From a virus: 64,000 bases of DNA. The notes below the pieces were generated by a model. It did not search any database and had not been told where the DNA came from. It was given only the letters and a program-made list of their open reading frames with translations. Both the position numbers and the translations under genes were made by a program. The DNA is taken from the IMG/VR virus record IMGVR_UViG_3300024349_000035. One strand, given 5' to 3'. Below, piece by piece: positions 10,387 to 50,269 of this stretch; the first letter of the stretch is position 1, and every line of letters begins with the position of its first letter.

Positions 10387-10788
10387 TTAGATGTCTTCTT
10401 CGTCGTCGTAGCTCATGGCCTTGTAGCGGCCCGCCATTGAAGCCTGAACTGCGTCCAGCTTCACCTTGATGTCATTGTGTAGGTCTTTCGCCGCCTGCTG
10501 GTTGGCAGACGTGAAGGAGCCGCTTTCGATGATCTTCTTGAGGCTCTCGATCTTGCTGGTTAGCTCGGTGAACGCCGTGCGTACCAGGGTGTTCACATCT
10601 TCCATCGGGGGAAGTTCCATACCTTCCTGTTCAGCCAGCGCGCGCACGCCCCAAAAGATTATCTGCTTCTGCGACCAGCCTGCTTTCTTGAACCTGTCAA
10701 CCAGTTCAAGAAACGCCTGCTCATTCGGGTCGGCAGGATCGAACCAAGCCTGAATCTGCTTCTCGCGTAACCTCTTGGAGCGTGCCAT
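10387..10788 (-). CDS. ParR-like partition adaptor (putative)
   Basis: Directly downstream of the actin-like ATPase; N-terminal strand-helix-helix (RHH-like) segment and acidic C-terminal tail. Confidence 0.6.
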   Translation of the reverse strand: MARSKRLREKQIQAWFDPADPNEQAFLELVDRFKKAGWSQKQIIFWGVRALAEQEGMELPPMEDVNTLVRTAFTELTSKIESLKKIIESGSFTSANQQAAKDLHNDIKVKLDAVQASMAGRYKAMSYDDEEDI

Positions 10789-10789
10789 G

Positions 10790-11950
10790 CTACTTCCCCT
10801 GACTGGCTAAAAAAGGGATAAGCCCCTTGCTTGCGCCGCGTACTGCGCTGAACCGAATCTTGGTCATGTCGATCTCGGTAGGCGATACATACGGGTGTTC
10901 CAGCACGCGCTCCTTGAGGAACTCAAAGGAAGATGCGGCACCACCGCCACCGACCACGATCAGGCTGTAGGGCAGACCATCGGCGTACCGGTTATGATAC
11001 GCATCGGCAATCGGCGCAACGATGGCCTGCATTGCGTTGGCGACCTGCGGCTTGCAGTCCTTCTCCTCGCCCTTGATCACGATCTTGCCGGATACCAGCG
11101 CATCGTGCATCAGCCGGATCGGGATGCGGGTCGTCGTGGCGAGTTCCTTGAAGCCCGCCTTTAGCTCTTCCTCAAAGATGTCGATGACGTTCTGGATGCC
11201 CTTGTGGATCGGCGGCGCGTCAGACAAGTTGATGTCGATGTTGCCGTAGTCGTCAATGGCGCACGGCACGAACGCAGACAACCCGCCGCCGATGTCCAGC
11301 ACCAGCACTTCATCGCCGGGTTGAAGCTGCTTCCCGGTGTTCGCATACGTTTCGCCCTTCGTGTTGAACAGGAACGTTTGCAGCGCGGCAACCGGCTCTT
11401 CCAGCGGGACGATCTCGGTGACGTTGTACTCGATGTTGCGCCCGTCTGCGGTCTTGATCTTGTGTACACCCTTGAGCGACTTCCACATGCGGCGGCGGTT
11501 CGCTTCGTCCAGGCGGGGCGGGTGCAGCGCGACCACATGCACGTCAGGATGGCTCTGCGGGTAGAGTTGCAGGAGCGCCGCTACCAGCATTGCGCCGTAG
11601 TGGTTGCGCTCGTACTTACCCGGCCCGACAATGCGCTGGCCTGAGCCGACCTGCGTGGCGTGCTTGCCGACCACATACCCGCCCTGCCCATCGTACTTGA
11701 AGATCGCTGTCCCCCGGTGATCAGACGGACGGTTGGAGTATGCCGCCGCGACGTTGGCGTACTCGCTGCTGGTCATCTGCCTGACCATGTGGGGGAAGAC
11801 GATTTCCTCACCGAAGCGTCTGTGGATCATGGCCTTGATGTCGGTGTTTCCACCGTCAAACAAGAACCACAACGGTTCTTTGTCACTGACCTGCGCGTAC
11901 TTGGAACCCGTCAGGTCGTGACCCGTATCCCATACCTTTACCTCTGTCAT
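10790..11950 (-). CDS. ParM/StbA-family actin-like ATPase
   Basis: Phosphate-1 FDGGNTDIK, connect LEEPVAA, phosphate-2 VLDIGGG, adenosine VVGGGGA. Confidence 0.85.
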   Translation of the reverse strand: MTEVKVWDTGHDLTGSKYAQVSDKEPLWFLFDGGNTDIKAMIHRRFGEEIVFPHMVRQMTSSEYANVAAAYSNRPSDHRGTAIFKYDGQGGYVVGKHATQVGSGQRIVGPGKYERNHYGAMLVAALLQLYPQSHPDVHVVALHPPRLDEANRRRMWKSLKGVHKIKTADGRNIEYNVTEIVPLEEPVAALQTFLFNTKGETYANTGKQLQPGDEVLVLDIGGGLSAFVPCAIDDYGNIDINLSDAPPIHKGIQNVIDIFEEELKAGFKELATTTRIPIRLMHDALVSGKIVIKGEEKDCKPQVANAMQAIVAPIADAYHNRYADGLPYSLIVVGGGGAASSFEFLKERVLEHPYVSPTEIDMTKIRFSAVRGASKGLIPFLASQGK

Positions 11951-31368: not shown

Positions 31369-31815
31369 CTAGAAGGGGTACTTCTCGTCCTCGACCTGTT
31401 CCCCGCCTTCCTGCTCGGTGATGTCTTCCTGCGGCAGCGGCTTCTTGTTTCCTGTAGAAGCGGCAGCGCCTTCTTCACCCTTACGCGGCAGGGCGATGTC
31501 CATAGCCGTGATCTGCAAGCTGGCGCTCGTTTCGCCCGTCTTCTTGCTGGTGAACAGGTTCAGGCTGTCCAGCTTGCCGATGACCGTCACCTGCTGGCCC
31601 TTCTTCAAATACTGGCTGAGAGCCTCAGCGCGTTCACGCCAGATGCTGACCTTGCACCAGAAGGTCTTGGCTTCGTCGCCGTTCTGGAAGGTGGTGCTGA
31701 ACGACAGCACGGCGATCCCCTGTGGCGTGTACTTGAACTCCGGCTCGGTCAATACCGTGCAGACCATCGTGAGCGAATTGGTGGTGTAATACTTCTTGCC
31801 CTGATTGTTTGCCAT
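31369..31815 (-). CDS. ssb: single-stranded DNA-binding protein
   Basis: PEFKYTPQGIAVLSFS, WCKVSIW, YLKKGQQVTVIGKL OB-fold pattern; acidic tail ending in EKYPF. Confidence 0.92.
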   Translation of the reverse strand: MANNQGKKYYTTNSLTMVCTVLTEPEFKYTPQGIAVLSFSTTFQNGDEAKTFWCKVSIWRERAEALSQYLKKGQQVTVIGKLDSLNLFTSKKTGETSASLQITAMDIALPRKGEEGAAASTGNKKPLPQEDITEQEGGEQVEDEKYPF

Positions 31816-31874: not shown

Positions 31875-31914
31875 GCTCATCTAACATTGTACCAAAAAAG
31901 TGTTAGATGAGCAA
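31875..31914 (-). promoter_or_regulatory. promoter overlapped by a 12-bp inverted-repeat operator
   Basis: TTGCTC-17 nt-TACAAT; GCTCATCTAACA (31875-31886) and TGTTAGATGAGC (31901-31912). Confidence 0.7.
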
Positions 31915-35520: not shown

Positions 35521-35715
35521 TTAATTACTGCTGCCGGGATATTGCGGGTGCAGGTTGCTCAGGTTCGCTTCCAAACGTTCGATCACATCAGCGACGGAGA
35601 GTTCTAGATACAGGGCTTTGAGCAAGACTGCGGGATCAATGGCGGTGATAGCGTCGTCAAGTTCAGGGTCTGGTGGTGGCTCTGACGTGTAACGACGCAT
35701 CCAACGAACATTCAT
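35521..35715 (-). CDS. hypothetical protein
   Basis: 64 aa ORF with purine-rich RBS. Confidence 0.5.
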   Translation of the reverse strand: MNVRWMRRYTSEPPPDPELDDAITAIDPAVLLKALYLELSVADVIERLEANLSNLHPQYPGSSN

Positions 35716-35900
35716 GATTTACCCCTATGGCCTTTGTTGCGTAACAAGATTCATTGTACCACGCTGCATAAGGATTGCACATACTTACACGACTACGCGC
35801 GAGAAAAATTTACAAATTTCACGAAAGATTCATGAAATTCTGTAACACATCTGTGATATAATCGTAGCGCTCCCGTGAAGTATGCGCAACGGCTAGACCC

Positions 35901-41372: not shown

Positions 41373-41417
41373 GGTGTATACCCTCCACTCGTGAACACAT
41401 GAATTAGTGTTCCCACC

Positions 41418-41457
41418 TATGCAAGAAGCCTGTCATATATGACAGGCTTCTTGCATA
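41418..41457. repeat. perfect 40-bp palindrome
   Basis: TATGCAAGAAGCCTGTCATA|TATGACAGGCTTCTTGCATA, no spacer, intergenic. Confidence 0.9.
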
Positions 41458-41479
41458 ACGCACTGTGCTTGAGGGCTAT

Positions 41480-41830
41480 TTAGAGCCGCACAGTCGGCTT
41501 GACACTGGCACGCCAGAATGTGACCCAACCGTTCTTGGTAGGCTTGTCATCGAACCACGTCGGCTCTGTCCAATCGCCCATGATTGGCAGGTCTAGATTG
41601 AGGCGCTTGAGCGTGCCTGGATAACAGCAAATGATGTGATCGCATAGCCCCTGTGCCTGAATATTTCGCACAAGGTTAGGCATCTGGAACGCACCATTCG
41701 CAAGGCCATGTGCCATGAGATAGCGCACACCTTTGTTGTCAGTGAATATGGCATAGCCATACGTATCGAAGTCCGACAACAGATCGTCAAATATCCGCTT
41801 CGACATACGGATTGAAAACTTATCAGCCAT
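41480..41830 (-). CDS. hypothetical protein
   Basis: Start MADKFSI; HG...ICCYPG. Confidence 0.6.
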   Translation of the reverse strand: MADKFSIRMSKRIFDDLLSDFDTYGYAIFTDNKGVRYLMAHGLANGAFQMPNLVRNIQAQGLCDHIICCYPGTLKRLNLDLPIMGDWTEPTWFDDKPTKNGWVTFWRASVKPTVRL

Positions 41831-41899
41831 TCCCCTACCCTCCACTCATGCGAACCCACCTGTGCAGTACAAGACTGCACAACGCTCTGAGCCTAAGGG

Positions 41900-42061
41900 C
41901 TATTTCACGTCGCTCAGACGACGATAGACGCTGTGCTTATCGCACAGCGCCACGATGACCTCATCGGCCTTGATGTTCTTCGCATCAGCAATAGCCAGTT
42001 GCTTCAAGCTGTAGCGACGGACACTAATCGACACGCCATTACGAACGATGAGCGAGAACAT
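41900..42061 (-). CDS. small hypothetical protein (53 aa, below the track cutoff)
   Basis: MFSLIVRNGVSISVRRYSLKQLAIADAKNIKADEVIVALCDKHSVYRRLSDVK after a GGAGG RBS. Confidence 0.55.
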   Translation of the reverse strand: MFSLIVRNGVSISVRRYSLKQLAIADAKNIKADEVIVALCDKHSVYRRLSDVK

Positions 42062-45336: not shown

Positions 45337-45554
45337 ACGATCAGGCGCAGAAGCTACTCAATCTGTTTAAGGCAGCACTGGAAGCCGATCAGGACGTGAA
45401 GCAAGCCGGGGAGATGGTGCTGGCTTCGCACATCAAGCGACAGAAGGCCGAACAGCAATCAAAGTCTGCCTGGAAGAAGTTTGCCGACGCAATGGCAGAG
45501 AACACGCTTGTACCGGAAGACATCAAGGCAAAGTTCAGGAGCAATGGTAAGTAA
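45333..45554 (+). CDS. helical hypothetical protein
   Basis: TAATG overlap with the portal start. Confidence 0.65.
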   Translation: MNDQAQKLLNLFKAALEADQDVKQAGEMVLASHIKRQKAEQQSKSAWKKFADAMAENTLVPEDIKAKFRSNGK

Positions 45555-47167
45555 TGCCTGAGACACTCGACATCAGACTCAAGCGCCAGTTCTCGGCAGG
45601 CATGATCCTGTCGGAACTGGATCGTGAGAATCTACCCCAAAACTTCCCGTTCACCGTCTGGAATGAACAGGCGCGACGGTATATCCAGTATTGGGACTAC
45701 TTCGACGGGACGGTGTGGGAAGAGATGATCGAAGTGCCGCCCGATCAGGACGGTGAACCGACCCTCAAGTATCCCCTACAGCTTAACCCGATCAAGACGC
45801 TGGCCTTCAAGCAGTCCTACGTCATCTTGGGCGAAGTCAGCGACAACCCCGGCCCGATGATCCCCTGCCGGATTGAGCCGCGCACGTTCAACGTCAGCAT
45901 TGACGATGAACAGGAAACCGACGAAGCCCTCAAGAAACAGGCCATGCAGATTGAGGAGTTCGTCAACCGGGTGTGGATCGAGAACAACGGGCGCGCGCTC
46001 CAGACGGAGAATGTGCTGGTGCAGCAGCCGATGGGCGGGTGCTGGTTCAGGATGATCGAAACCGACGACCCTGAAATCCCTACCGGTATTCGCATCGAGA
46101 ACGTCATCCCTGACTTCGTGTTCGCCACCCATGATTCCGGCAGACCGGACAACCTGCTGGAAGTCTTCATGTGCTACCGCGTCCCGGCGCGCGAGGCTCA
46201 GTTGAAGTATGGGTACGTATCCGACAACAACTCTGGCCTGAACCAACCCCTGTACGTCGAACACTGGACGAAGAAAGCCGTGTCGATCTACATGAACGGT
46301 GAAATTCTGGATTGGGAAGGGGTGCATTGGGATGAAGTCGAACACGACTGGGGCAGGATACCCTTCTTCTACATCCCGCGTGAACGGGCAGGGGGCTTCT
46401 ACGGATACTCCATCGTAGATGACCTCAAGGGATTGGCGCGGGAGATCAACGCCCGCCTTGCTGACATGGGTGACGTGATCGCAGAGAACGCACACCGCGT
46501 CTGGTTCGTGCGCAACGTTGGCCCAACCGTGCGTACCCGCAATGTCGGCGGGAAGACGATGATTGACCTGGGGACGCAAGCTCCCGGTGTGAGCAATCTA
46601 CCCGAAGCCTTCATGCAAGACCCGCCCGACATCCCGACGACACTGGGCGACTACCCCGAAGTTCTGCATGAGCAGTTCGGGCGCGACGGTTTCCTGCCTG
46701 CGGTGGCAGAAGGTAAGGATGAGGGGTCACAGCGCAGCGCTCTAACCCTTGCCTTCCGTATGTGGCCTTTGACCAGCAAGGCGCGGGCGATCCGCACGTA
46801 CTGGACGAACGCGCTGAACCGTATGAACCGCACAATCGCAGAGATGGGGATCAAGCGCAAGCAGCTTAAAGTGCCTGTCACGGTACTGGATGAAGTGCAA
46901 TGGCTGTGCGAATGGTCGCCCATGATCCCGCGTGACCGCGAACAGCTTGTGAACGAGGCGGTGCTTGCCGTTTCTACCGGATTTATGGCTCCGCTCACGG
47001 CGATCCGTATTCTCGGACAGGTGACAGACCCGATTGCAGAGTACGAAGCGATCCGCGAACACAAGGAATGGGAGAGCGAACTGCAAGCGCAGAACGCCAT
47101 GCAGGACAATCTTGCCAAACCGACCACACCGAAAGCGACCTCCGGCGTAGACGAAAGCCAGAACTAG
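45554..47167 (+). CDS. portal protein
   Basis: 537 aa between TerL and scaffold; YWDYFDG, LNPIK, SALTL...WPL and W...IPRD patterns typical of SPP1-like portals. Confidence 0.8.
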   Translation: MPETLDIRLKRQFSAGMILSELDRENLPQNFPFTVWNEQARRYIQYWDYFDGTVWEEMIEVPPDQDGEPTLKYPLQLNPIKTLAFKQSYVILGEVSDNPGPMIPCRIEPRTFNVSIDDEQETDEALKKQAMQIEEFVNRVWIENNGRALQTENVLVQQPMGGCWFRMIETDDPEIPTGIRIENVIPDFVFATHDSGRPDNLLEVFMCYRVPAREAQLKYGYVSDNNSGLNQPLYVEHWTKKAVSIYMNGEILDWEGVHWDEVEHDWGRIPFFYIPRERAGGFYGYSIVDDLKGLAREINARLADMGDVIAENAHRVWFVRNVGPTVRTRNVGGKTMIDLGTQAPGVSNLPEAFMQDPPDIPTTLGDYPEVLHEQFGRDGFLPAVAEGKDEGSQRSALTLAFRMWPLTSKARAIRTYWTNALNRMNRTIAEMGIKRKQLKVPVTVLDEVQWLCEWSPMIPRDREQLVNEAVLAVSTGFMAPLTAIRILGQVTDPIAEYEAIREHKEWESELQAQNAMQDNLAKPTTPKATSGVDESQN

Positions 47168-47260: not shown

Positions 47261-47959
47261 ATGCCAAAAGCCGACCTCAACATTGACGACGAACTGGACA
47301 GCAGCACCAGTGACTCCTCAACTGATGAATCGGGGCGCTCTTCCGATAAAGACGTGGATTACAAGTCCAAGTACATCGGCCTGAGCCGCGTCAACACGCG
47401 CTTGACCAACGAGAACAAGCAACTCAAAGACAAGCTGGCGAACCTGTCGGAAGAATACGAAGGCAAGCTGGCGGAAGCGACGGGCAGCGCGTCGGACGCA
47501 ACCAAGCGGATCAAGGAACTCGAACAACTTCAAAAGGCGGCAGAGGATCGGGCGACCAAGTGGGAGCGCGAAGCAACCAAAGCTGTCACACGCACGGAGA
47601 AGGCGGCTGAAATCTCCGAGAAGTTCCCCGCGCTGGCGAATGCCTTCTTGCGCGGCGATCTCAAGGACATCAGCGACTTCGACAAGCCGGAAGATTTCGA
47701 CGCTTACCTTGAACGCATGAGCAAGCTGGCGGGCTTTGCCCAACAGCAGCAGGAAGAGGATCAGCAGATCGACACCGAGGACGTTGCGCCGCCGCGCAAG
47801 CCCACACCTCCCGGCGCAGGGGCAACCCGTACCGGAAACGGCAAGGGCGCGAAGATGACCGCGCAGCAGATTCGGGATCGCCTGATGGAACTCAACCCAA
47901 GCAACCCCAAACATCAGGACGAATACGACCAACTCATGGATCAGCTTGAGTTGGTCTAA
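47261..47959 (+). CDS. capsid scaffolding protein
   Basis: Acidic N-terminus, coiled coil, Pro/Gly linker and short C-terminal helix; directly upstream of the capsid gene. Confidence 0.75.
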   Translation: MPKADLNIDDELDSSTSDSSTDESGRSSDKDVDYKSKYIGLSRVNTRLTNENKQLKDKLANLSEEYEGKLAEATGSASDATKRIKELEQLQKAAEDRATKWEREATKAVTRTEKAAEISEKFPALANAFLRGDLKDISDFDKPEDFDAYLERMSKLAGFAQQQQEEDQQIDTEDVAPPRKPTPPGAGATRTGNGKGAKMTAQQIRDRLMELNPSNPKHQDEYDQLMDQLELV

Positions 47960-47986: not shown

Positions 47987-48396
47987 ATGACACTTGGCGA
48001 TTTCGACAGTTACTACGGGCAATCGCCCTGGGACAACCTTGAACTGAACCAGCGCCAGTGGTACGACCCGTACCTGCTGGACGTGTGGCGCAAGCACAAT
48101 GTCTACGGGCAGTTCACGACCTTCGTGCAGAACTTGGCGAACCGCAATGCCAAGACGATGACCTTCAACGGTCTGTACGACATTCACCCCAACACGGACG
48201 CACTTGGCTTGCGTACTATGTGGCTTGATGCAGCATGGGTCGATTCTTTCCAGATCGACATCACGTTTAGTCGCTACGGTGGAAAAATCTCTTATCATCG
48301 CTATGACGATCTAATTACATATTGGCGTGACGGGGGTGGCTCTGAGAAGGGTGTCATCCGGCGCGTCCTGAATGGTAAGCTGGGAAGACAAATGGT
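47987..48396 (+). CDS. major capsid protein, exon 1
   Basis: Follows the scaffold gene; the frame runs into the intron after ...LGRQM-GT. Confidence 0.8.
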
Positions 48397-49329
48397 AAAC
48401 AAAACTGCCCACTAATGCGGTAACGCATTAGTGAATCCTCTCTGGTATCGGAGAAACTCTGGAAGCAGACAACTCCGAGGGAAGCGCAAGCGCCCGTAAC
48501 GACTGAGTGAGAGGCTCCTGTAAATACAGGATGAAGCTACAGTCTGAACTCCGCGTATAACTGAGGCAAGAAGGCGGAGAGGTGGGCAGAAATGACCCAC
48601 CCACTAGCACTTTAATAATGTTTCATATTGCTCAGTGCAACACGGTAGCCATCCAGAAGGGCGTACTCATCTGGTGATAGGCAAAAGGACAACTGACGAC
48701 GCAGTTCGCAGGCCTCACGCAGCAACTTGATTTCCTCAAGTTTACGCGACGGCAAGGTTTGCTCAGGCCATACAAGCAGCAGTCCATGAACCGACTTCCA
48801 GCCACGAATAGCCCAACGCACATAGCGATGTCTTGGTGGCTTAGGTGTGTGATAGGTCAGATGACCACCAAGTTTCGCCTGAACATCGTTCAACAGTTGC
48901 GTATCGTCATCGCGCAACGAAATGTTGAGTGTCGGATAGATGTGTTTGCGTGAAAGCGGTTCGTTGGTGCGGTTTGAGCGCATCTGATTGGCGTACAGGC
49001 CAAGATTGCCCTCACCGTAGAACAAGCCAGCGAACGCCTGCATCCACCAAGGTTCGACATAACTGTAATCAACAGGCGGGGTGCGATAGTTGGAGCGCAC
49101 GCGGATACCGTGTCTAGCGAGTGAGCCACGAATTGACTCCTTCGGGATGCTTAATTGCTGCGAAATCTGTTCAAGGGTTAACCCTTGCTGTTGCAGCAGG
49201 CTCATTTGCTCAATTTGCTCAGGTGTGTACTTTGGTTTTCCGGTCATGAGAACCCTATCTTCGGTAAACATATTGTACCACATGAGACATATTTGCACGA
49301 GCATGAAACGTGCTAGGGGTAACAGATTG
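48397..49329 (+). mobile_element. group I intron (933 nt) in the major capsid gene
   Basis: Exon ends in U, intron ends in G; P2 48410-48433, P3 CCTCTC/GAGAGG, P7 GACTG/CAGTC, P8 CCTGT/ACAGG, P9 CTCCGC/GCGGAG; splicing restores RQMV-DVFDLLSRNA. Confidence 0.88.
48612..49247 (-). CDS. HTH + single-motif LAGLIDADG homing endonuclease, antisense within the intron
   Basis: FAGLFYGEGNL motif, ISLRDDD...LLNDVQAKLGG; N-terminal GLTLEQISQQLSIPKESI HTH; own TG-extended TACAAT at 49272-49277. Confidence 0.85.
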   Translation of the reverse strand: MTGKPKYTPEQIEQMSLLQQQGLTLEQISQQLSIPKESIRGSLARHGIRVRSNYRTPPVDYSYVEPWWMQAFAGLFYGEGNLGLYANQMRSNRTNEPLSRKHIYPTLNISLRDDDTQLLNDVQAKLGGHLTYHTPKPPRHRYVRWAIRGWKSVHGLLLVWPEQTLPSRKLEEIKLLREACELRRQLSFCLSPDEYALLDGYRVALSNMKHY

Positions 49330-50269
49330 GGATGTTTTCGACCTGCTCTCGCGTAACGCGCTCCTGTCTGTCCCGTACAAGCGCTACGCAGTCGGGCGCA
49401 GCGACTTCAACAGCATCACCGTCACCGACAAGTTCTCGATCCCGATGCTGGATGACATCCACCTCGGCATGTCATATCGAGATGTACCCTACGCGAGTTC
49501 GCCAAGCGGCGACGTGGGAACGATTGTCGGCATCATCTCGCCCGGTGTCTTCTACGACATCCAGCGCAATTCCAGCGACAAGGATTGGTTGATCCCGATG
49601 GCGTACTCGCGTCCGGTCAGCCTGCTCCGCTATGAAGTCGGGACGTATCGCAACGTCCGCTGGATCGTCACGCCGAAGCAGACCTTGTGGAATACGGGCA
49701 GCATCACCGAACAACGGACGATCACCAGCAGCGCCGTTGCGGGCGCAGGTTCGCCATCCACGAAGGTCGATGGCGTGTACCGTGTGGGTCAGACCAGCGC
49801 GGCGAAGTACCTGCAACTGGACGCAGGGCCAACCGACATTATGGCGAACGACATCATCACGATCCACAAGACGCGCTCGAACACCAACGGTGTCACCAAC
49901 GGTGTTGACTACACCGAAGGCACGCTGATGAATCGCCGCGTCATCTCCGTCGATACGGTCAATCACCGGATCACCCTGGATCAGCCGATCATGGTAGATT
50001 TCGACACCGACCTCGGCGGCGGTGTGTACGGCTATGTGACGAAGGGCGTTCATATCCACGCTAGTACCTTCATTGGTGGGCCGGACGCAATCGTGACAGG
50101 GGTTGGTAGACCAGTTGAGTTGCACACGCCTCCGCCCGTCGATGACTTCGACAGCGTGTACAGGTACAGTTGGGATTCTTATCTTGGTCATCAAGTTTAT
50201 AATCCCAAAGTAGCAGAAACCGTCTTCTCGGCTGGCTCCGTCCGTATGGTTGGCGAGATGCTCCAGTAG
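49330..50269 (+). CDS. major capsid protein, exon 2 (spliced product 449 aa)
   Basis: GIISPGVFYDI, YEVGTYRNVRWI, DDFDSVYRYSW HK97-fold-like patterns; beta-rich inserted domain. Confidence 0.8.

Follow-up and report, generated by a model that had tools for sequence, protein, structure and literature searches.

Organisation of the locus and the split capsid gene

We analysed a 64,000-nucleotide stretch of DNA from an uncultivated phage, the IMG/VR record IMGVR_UViG_3300024349_000035 (hereafter the window), and concentrated on positions 47,987 to 50,269, where the gene for the major capsid protein is interrupted by a predicted group I intron with a putative homing endonuclease gene (HEG) on the opposite strand. 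Two plus-strand open reading frames (ORFs), at 47987-48415 (142 aa) and 49310-50269 (319 aa), flank here a minus-strand ORF at 48612-49304. The locus can be divided into the following parts:

47987..48396, plus strand: exon 1 of the major capsid gene, 136 codons and 2 nt with T as the final base (from the ORF list and homolog alignment)
48397..49329, plus strand: predicted group I intron, 933 nt, last base omega-G, boundaries set by protein alignment
48612..49247, minus strand: predicted homing endonuclease gene, 211 aa, with a three-helix N-terminal helix-turn-helix (HTH) and one LAGLIDADG domain (motif FAGLFYGEGN)
49330..50269, plus strand: exon 2 of the major capsid gene, made up of the base that completes the split Val codon, 312 codons and the stop

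A search with the exon 2 translation recovered 197 homologs, some of which carry the name 'N4-gp56 family major capsid protein'. Nearly all of them are 446-493 aa long, and the capsid ORF of the window is therefore truncated on its 5′ side. Exon 2 shares 62% identity with the protein P0002 across 100% of the exon length and its profile family is phrog_1357 'major head protein'. The missing part is found upstream, as the translation of exon 1 aligns with the first ~137 aa of uninterrupted capsid proteins of the N4-gp56 type. The capsid assignment is based on this phrog_1357 match together with the gene order, in which a portal gene (45554-47167) and a coiled-coil scaffold-like ORF (47261-47959) precede the split gene.

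Joining position 48396 to 49330 produces 1350 nt encoding a 449-aa protein, with the split codon GT|G and the junction peptide QMVDVFDLLSRNA. These are exactly the splice coordinates and the product given in the initial annotation, and the MAFFT alignment agrees with them: the 449-aa product runs without gaps over the junction against 18 uninterrupted homologs of 446-469 aa (KLGRQMV|DVFDLLSRNALL in the window, KLGRHLVDVQDLLSRNALL in P0002), and both unspliced ORFs leave the homolog family precisely at the intron boundary. The only start codon in the frame of exon 2 upstream of the junction is GTG 49310, which lies inside the 3′ strand of the intron helix P9.2 (see below).

We noticed that the 319-aa C-terminal part of the capsid protein (49310-50269) is recorded in public protein collections as a separate protein, P0001, with the GTG start inside the intron, and that related contigs show the same mis-annotation. 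Gene callers divide the capsid gene of the window into two ORFs labelled 'hypothetical', and recognition of the intron gives back the complete 449-aa protein.

Structure of the intron

The length of the intron is a multiple of three (933 nt = 3 x 311) and an in-frame TAA is present six codons in, at 48413-48415. Exon 1 ends with T and the intron with G49329, the omega-G, and ligation of the exons restores the reading frame. The elements below were assigned on the plus strand; the core is given as matched by R1, a covariance model that we seeded from four capsid-gene cores (the window and three relatives), and P2 and P8 were assessed by eye and from single-sequence folds alone.

48394..48409: P1, GGU|A (48394-48397) paired with the guide UGCC (48406-48409) in the ViennaRNA fold
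48410..48433: P2 hairpin, 10 bp with a GUAA loop, from the fold
48431..48603: catalytic core P3-P9.1, 178 bits with R1 (the window being one of its seed sequences)
48437-48442/48509-48514: P3
48501-48505 (GACUG)/48540-48544 (CAGUC): P7 pseudoknot
about 48517-48530: P8
48549-48554/48574-48579: P9
48581-48586/48596-48601: P9.1
48604..49316: P9.2, CUAGCAC (48604-48610) paired with GUGCUAG (49310-49316), the loop containing the endonuclease gene

The helices named in the initial annotation are all in place, and P3, P7 and P9 covary across relatives. Its CTAGCAC/GTGCTAG stem is present on both sides, pairs in the fold of the ORF-deleted intron and corresponds to P9.2, with counterparts of other sequence in the related introns of contigs L001, L003 and L004, the last of which is ORF-less. 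At the 5′ splice site, P1 contains a U48396-G48407 wobble; in single-sequence folds, all four capsid introns display this U-G wobble and have P2 directly after P1. No P7.1/P7.2 extension was observed in the window intron between P3′ and P8.

For P10, which had been proposed to form between AAACA at the intron 5′ end (48397-48401) and TGTTT in exon 2 (49333-49337), the situation was less clear. Both strands are present but they are offset from the splice site, and there is no counterpart in L003, L004, L367 and L369; among the relatives, a similar match was seen in L001 alone (GAACA/UGUUC). The AAACA/UGUUU pairing is thus unproven as a feature of this intron.

The intron belongs to a covarying RNA family

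At the gathering threshold, Rfam gave no group I match in the window. A local search of 1.2 kb aligned the full-length RF00028 model (positions 1-253) to 48387-48566 with 27.4 bits (E 1.1e-4), a match that is by itself no more than suggestive. The core of L001 reached 45.8 bits with the same model (E 3.9e-10), and L003 and L004 had no Rfam match even at E<=1. As Rfam at its gathering threshold was blind to the window and L003 and L004 stayed blank, we built the R1 model, which matches L003 and L004 and also the capsid-gene intron of mycobacteriophage LittleE. The cores of the window, L001, L003 and L004 share GACUGAG...GAGAGG, ACAGUCUG..CUCCGCGUAUAAC, GGCAGAAAUGACC and the 3′ tail GUAACA...G.

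R1 recognises exactly one core in the window (48431-48603). We scanned three public collections with a P9/P9.1 pattern of 17 specified bases, the loci of which represent a lower bound, and recovered at least 208 R1 cores: at least 118 in 86 sources (the window and 85 loci, nearly all of them viral contigs), at least 63 in metagenome loci and at least 27 in genome loci. Among the 80 loci listed by the scan of genome contigs, about 20 have a real R1 core and the remainder are probably chance matches.

Covariation was evaluated on 108 distinct viral sequences for P3, P4, P5, part of P6, P9 and P9.1, assigned from the Rfam alignment. Standard pairs make up 92.6% of the paired positions, against 66.7% in shuffled and 33-44% in slid alignments; 32 of the 35 base pairs show changes on both sides, and none of 500 shuffles attained any of the covariation measures. 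A pseudoknot cannot be encoded in a covariance model and P7 was therefore counted by a script, which found it paired in 94.3% of cases compared with 11-31% after sliding. Two of its pairs switch between sequences, one from A-U to G-C (57 and 15 sequences) and one from U-A to C-G (73 and 10). Judged from sequence conservation and covariation, the insert is a genuine group I intron with a complete core P1-P9.2 and a P7 pseudoknot. Together with the exon alignment, the covariation bears out the view that the major capsid gene is split by a group I intron.

In several contigs, three to five cores are located within 1-4 kb (L137 at 853-1571, L184, L179, L317, L048, L077, L024 and L084). The three cores of L137 are merely ~80-130 nt apart, which leaves almost no space for exons; tandem introns with micro-exons and nested introns are candidate readings of this arrangement.

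The antisense homing endonuclease gene

The minus-strand ORF 48612-49304 has an upstream in-frame ATG at 49304 that would give a protein of 230 aa. The probable start is ATG 49247 (211 aa), since the public protein P0121 consists of the same 211 aa and homologs align from its first residue. A word-based protein search with this sequence returned a self-match alone and the PDB sequence search only I-PnoMI with E 0.26. The exhaustive HMMER search, on the other hand, recovered 171 relatives; out of 28 aligned members, 14 match Pfam LAGLIDADG_1 (PF00961) at E<=1e-3 and many have HTH domains. The orthologs in L001 and L003, with 35% and 28% identity to the window protein, score 26.1 and 26.2 bits, above the Pfam cut-off of 23.1. 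Residues F72, G74, F76, G78, E79 and G80 are invariant across these two proteins and that of the window, and G74 and G80 in all 28 relatives.

The structure predicted by AlphaFold from the alignment of relatives (pLDDT 92.8) has three helices at the N-terminus, ahead of an alpha-beta-beta-alpha-beta-beta-alpha core. Foldseek assigned probability 1.00 to I-CreI, I-MsoI, I-TnaI and I-OnuI, and the match with I-CreI spans ~146 residues with a target TM-score of 0.71-0.74 and rmsd of about 3.3 Å. Based on the Pfam scores of the orthologs, the predicted fold and the Foldseek hits, the window ORF therefore appears to be a single-motif LAGLIDADG enzyme with an added HTH, and it is presumably homodimeric. 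The minus-strand HTH-LAGLIDADG ORF in a peripheral loop, recognised by the initial annotation, is thus supported by the family alignment, the AlphaFold fold and Foldseek. The N-terminal module varies within the family: the window protein has an HTH and that of L003 a zinc ribbon, and the L001 protein has no such module.

To see how common the antisense arrangement is, we surveyed 167 distinct R1 cores with enough downstream sequence. Four of them were flagged because an antisense ORF of some size follows immediately on the 3′ side, namely the window, L003, L179 and the probably spurious L020; L001 came from the HMM survey. The share is thus about 4-5 of 167 cores (~3%), and the three LAGLIDADG cases (window, L001 and L003) all belong to the capsid family of the window. 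The ORF of L179 (about 1743-1948 on the minus strand and downstream), located directly 3′ of a group I core, is different in that it is 385 aa long and contains CxxC pairs; it may represent another family of antisense intron-encoded proteins.

Putative expression signals

A scan for two-hexamer sigma-70 promoters found no minus-strand promoter for the HEG. A candidate extended -10 element, TGGTACAAT, is present on the minus strand 24 nt upstream of the HEG ATG. The window contains three copies, all on the minus strand, compared with 0.21 expected, and they lie 24-70 nt upstream of minus-strand ORF starts:

31886-31894, minus strand: TGGTACAAT in a gap, 70 nt upstream of the ATG of ORF 31369-31815
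35753-35761, minus strand: TGGTACAAT in a gap, 37 nt upstream of the ATG of ORF 35521-35715
49272-49280, minus strand: TGGTACAAT upstream of the HEG

The HEG of L003 is preceded by the same nonamer, and in L001 the corresponding position is occupied by TATAAT. TGGTACAAT is thus a candidate for the extended -10 promoter motif of the leftward genes of this phage, and an independent promoter of the HEG is plausible. The earlier claim that the endonuclease has its own promoter is in this way made plausible by the motif upstream of the ATG but not by the two-hexamer scan, which was blank.

At the 5′ border of the intron, the HEG strand contains a terminator-like site (48435-48408, minus strand) made of the complement of P2 and a T-run, CAGTTTTGTT, which could halt antisense transcription before it reaches exon 1. 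Terminator-like sites are no commoner in the window than in shuffled sequence.

Elsewhere in the window, we identified two matches to the Pistol ribozyme (RF02679) on the minus strand, 41411-41499 with 52.2 bits and 41854-41923 with 67.3 bits (gathering threshold 34.5).

Related introns in the same capsid gene family

Seven or more related contigs retain the split-capsid intron architecture. In L001 and L003 a group I core is followed by an antisense LAGLIDADG ORF in a split capsid gene, L004 has an ORF-less intron of 285 nt, and the contig of P0030 displays a 105-aa plus-strand ORF, a 247-aa minus-strand ORF and a 332-aa plus-strand ORF. P0122, P0123 and P0125, which are the closest relatives of the HEG with 36-38% identity, are all encoded antisense within split capsid genes that belong to this family and lie in the same module of portal, scaffold, capsid and adaptor genes.

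The insertion sites were mapped from the cores and exons, using the numbering of P0002:

Site A′, about aa 96: L370 intron 1, ORF-less
Site A, about aa 107-109: L003 (with HEG); L004 and L367 intron 1 (ORF-less)
Site B, V|D: the window
Site B′, 4 nt downstream of B: L370 intron 2 (with HEG)
Site C, R|DVP: L001
Site C′, 7 nt downstream of C: L367 intron 2 and L369 (with HEG)

Six or more sites are thus used within ~95 codons of the capsid gene, with up to two introns per gene. All of them are located in conserved motifs, which fits the expectation for homing elements. The guide sequences vary by insertion site, each being complementary to its own local exon (exon/guide):

Window: GGU|A / UGCC
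L001: CCGU|G / CGCGG
L003 and L004: CGAU / GUCG
L370: ACGGAU / GUCCGU

A FastTree analysis of 129 core columns gave no resolution as to whether the capsid introns form a clade, and for this reason we do not choose between site-switching within the gene and independent invasion.

Interpretation of the locus

We consider it very likely that the locus represents a mobile group I intron in an N4-gp56-type capsid gene with an antisense HTH-LAGLIDADG HEG. Ribosomes translating the pre-mRNA of the late-transcribed capsid gene would halt at TAA 48413-48415. The intron would fold into P1 with its U-G wobble, P2, the P3-P9 core with the guanosine-binding P7 pseudoknot, and P9.1, and the long-range P9.2 stem would loop out ~700 nt and deliver the omega-G (49329) to the core. 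Two transesterifications would then link 48396 to 49330 and restore the 449-aa capsid protein, a reaction that RT-PCR has demonstrated for the homologous LittleE intron. The I-CreI-like HEG in the P9.2 loop would be expressed independently from the opposite strand, probably from the TGGTACAAT-type promoter. Its product, most likely a homodimer, would cut the capsid gene of co-infecting relatives that lack the intron, near CAAATGGT|GGATGTTTTC, and repair of the cut allele would copy the intron in, which constitutes homing. Both splicing and homing at the window locus are thus what we infer from sequence. In three DNA runs, which come from two studies, contigs span the boundaries between intron and exons, and all of these contigs carry the intron with no differences.

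Several points weigh against this interpretation. The group I model search put forward in the initial annotation was positive in that RF00028 aligns over its full length and R1 matches, but the RF00028 score of 27.4 bits is under the curated gathering cut-off of 50, which is a curation threshold and not a structural feature. The HEG of the window itself scores 16.6 bits with LAGLIDADG_1, below the cut-off of 23.1, and has weak HTH matches. In the folds, P1 is limited to 4 bp and there is practically no canonical P10. Among the contigs of the DNA runs, which have low coverage, we found no intron-less allele and no contig joining across the intron, and none of the RNA runs among the sequencing runs listed carries the locus. 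Finally, the sequence of the window was among the seeds of the model to which the covariation alignment had been fitted. The slid and shuffled controls, the Rfam matches and the co-variation of P1 with its exon are independent of the R1 seeding and so are not touched by this last caveat.

A further-reaching proposal is that the antisense arrangement is functional, which we regard as rather unlikely in this full form. The HEG would have a TGGTACAAT-type promoter like the two other leftward ORFs and would be made independently of, and perhaps before, late capsid transcription; it would serve as a weapon of interference competition against intron-less co-infecting relatives; and units of intron and HEG with swapped N-terminal modules (HTH, zinc ribbon or none) would have hopped among six or more positions of the capsid gene. 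Interference competition has been shown for the intron endonuclease of PhiPA3 (PMC11620839). If the proposal is true, the HEG would never be translated from the pre-mRNA, so that the folding of the ribozyme would be protected, and the capsid introns would provide a natural series for the joint retargeting of LAGLIDADG enzymes and guide sequences.

LAGLIDADG proteins act as maturases in organelles. The antisense ORF might accordingly no longer encode a mobility nuclease but a domesticated maturase or a DNA-binding regulator, or the antisense transcript might tune splicing or, as the initial annotation proposed, the expression of the capsid gene. In favour of such readings are the convergent layout and the candidate promoter, the HTH added to the nuclease domain and the lack, in the DNA-run contigs, of an intron-less allele indicative of ongoing homing. 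We nevertheless find them improbable. The window, L001 and L003 all retain the glutamate of the LAGLIDADG motif, the residues of the core fold are conserved in relatives, and HEG-bearing and ORF-less introns occur at several sites, as active homing and loss of the HEG would predict. A maturase would moreover need to bind the RNA strand opposite to its own mRNA, a possible arrangement but one for which we know of no precedent in phages.

Even less probable is that the insert is a decayed, splicing-incompetent relic and that the capsid gene is either dead, in a defective provirus, or expressed as two assembling polypeptides (a 'gene in pieces'). The sub-threshold Rfam score, the short P1, the missing RNA data and the IMG/VR class of the record, a provirus about 80% complete, could be read this way. 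However, the helices of the core are all intact and fit a family that covaries, neither the two exons nor the HEG ORF contain an interruption, and a separate C-terminal polypeptide would have to begin at GTG 49310 within the 3′ strand of P9.2, the only start available before the junction. In addition, the same architecture is kept in the seven or more related contigs, and the homologous LittleE intron splices efficiently (PMC3706429).

The split gene itself, and nothing further, would also suit other kinds of elements, but these can be practically dismissed: an intein by the in-frame TAA six codons into the insert, a group II intron by the lack of a reverse-transcriptase ORF and the group I model as the sole match, and a HEG inserted without a ribozyme by the group I match and the covarying core.

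Comparison with known systems

The classical phage introns (T4 td/nrdB/nrdD, SPO1 DNA polymerase, Twort) resemble the mobile intron proposed here in residing in an essential conserved phage gene, in carrying the HEG in a peripheral loop and in having an early in-frame stop. They differ by sense-strand GIY-YIG or HNH genes and by hosts mostly from nucleotide metabolism and replication, whereas the gene of the window is an antisense LAGLIDADG. I-CreI, I-MsoI and I-TnaI are encoded by sense-orientation genes in rRNA introns. These homodimeric single-motif enzymes share with the window protein the predicted core fold (target TM-score 0.69-0.74, rmsd about 3.3-3.8 Å) and one LAGLIDADG helix with an acidic residue (GEG in the window), but identity is only 12-16%, and the window protein has the extra N-terminal three-helix HTH (residues about 9-45), and its gene lies antisense to the intron. 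A precedent for a HEG opposite to the ribozyme strand is found in nuclear rDNA group I introns (e.g. position L2066), which carry antisense His-Cys box HEGs (PMC9548176); these belong to the eukaryotic nucleus and to another nuclease family, and their expression depends on Pol II signals and spliceosomal introns.

The host gene, the orientation and the nuclease family had all been considered unusual. Antisense ORFs are indeed rare in the RNA family, but the combination has already been published for LittleE (below), and the capsid gene does not qualify as an unusual host. The closest RNA relatives of the window core are also in capsid genes of other families, their host genes matching phrog_267, phrog_14242 and a head-protease fusion, and the major capsid protein (MCP) genes of crAss-like phages from the Delta and Zeta groups contain several introns (PMC7886860). 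Capsid genes are thus common hosts of this RNA family. The ORFs beside the cores of three of these closest relatives, L010, L024 and L045, are sense-strand endonucleases of EndoVII/HNH/GIY-YIG type. A capsid-like gene that probably has two introns was observed in a different type of phage, L006 (9852-12112; near-identical L005): an ORF-less group I intron interrupts it a few codons from its start, and further along two capsid-like pieces are separated by a sense-strand HNH ORF (10616-11221).

The closest parallel is mycobacteriophage LittleE (Cluster J), whose capsid gene contains a group I intron with splicing shown by RT-PCR (Pope et al. 2013, PLoS One 8:e69273; PMC3706429). Its locus (JF937101) scores 59.1 bits with R1 (E 2e-18) in a match that takes in the GGCAGAAAUGACC hairpin of P9.1, and the antisense gene 14 starts directly after the intron core, 3′ of P9.1. 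The gene 14 product, gp14, with the motif LAGLFEGEGC, was matched to the HEG family profile by hhalign with a probability of 94.4%. Both elements are therefore of one type, with a major capsid gene as the host, the same RNA core family, a homologous single-motif antisense LAGLIDADG gene, U as the last base of exon 1 and G as the last base of the intron, yet in a different phage lineage, capsid protein family and insertion site. The HEGs are distant (22% identity over 74 aligned columns), and in the profile comparison gp14 aligned to the nuclease domain alone, not to the N-terminal HTH of the window protein. In the GenBank phage collection, no blastn match to the locus and no tblastn match to the HEG was found.

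The combination of a capsid intron with an antisense LAGLIDADG gene is thus already documented and involves no new mechanism. The window shows that the LittleE type of element is not confined to the mycobacteriophage and recurs in an unrelated environmental phage lineage. What is added is its recurrence at six or more close sites, up to two per gene and beside ORF-less derivatives, which makes up a compact natural data set on the site-switching of introns and HEGs and gives access to a family of small LAGLIDADG enzymes whose N-terminal DNA-binding domains are modular.

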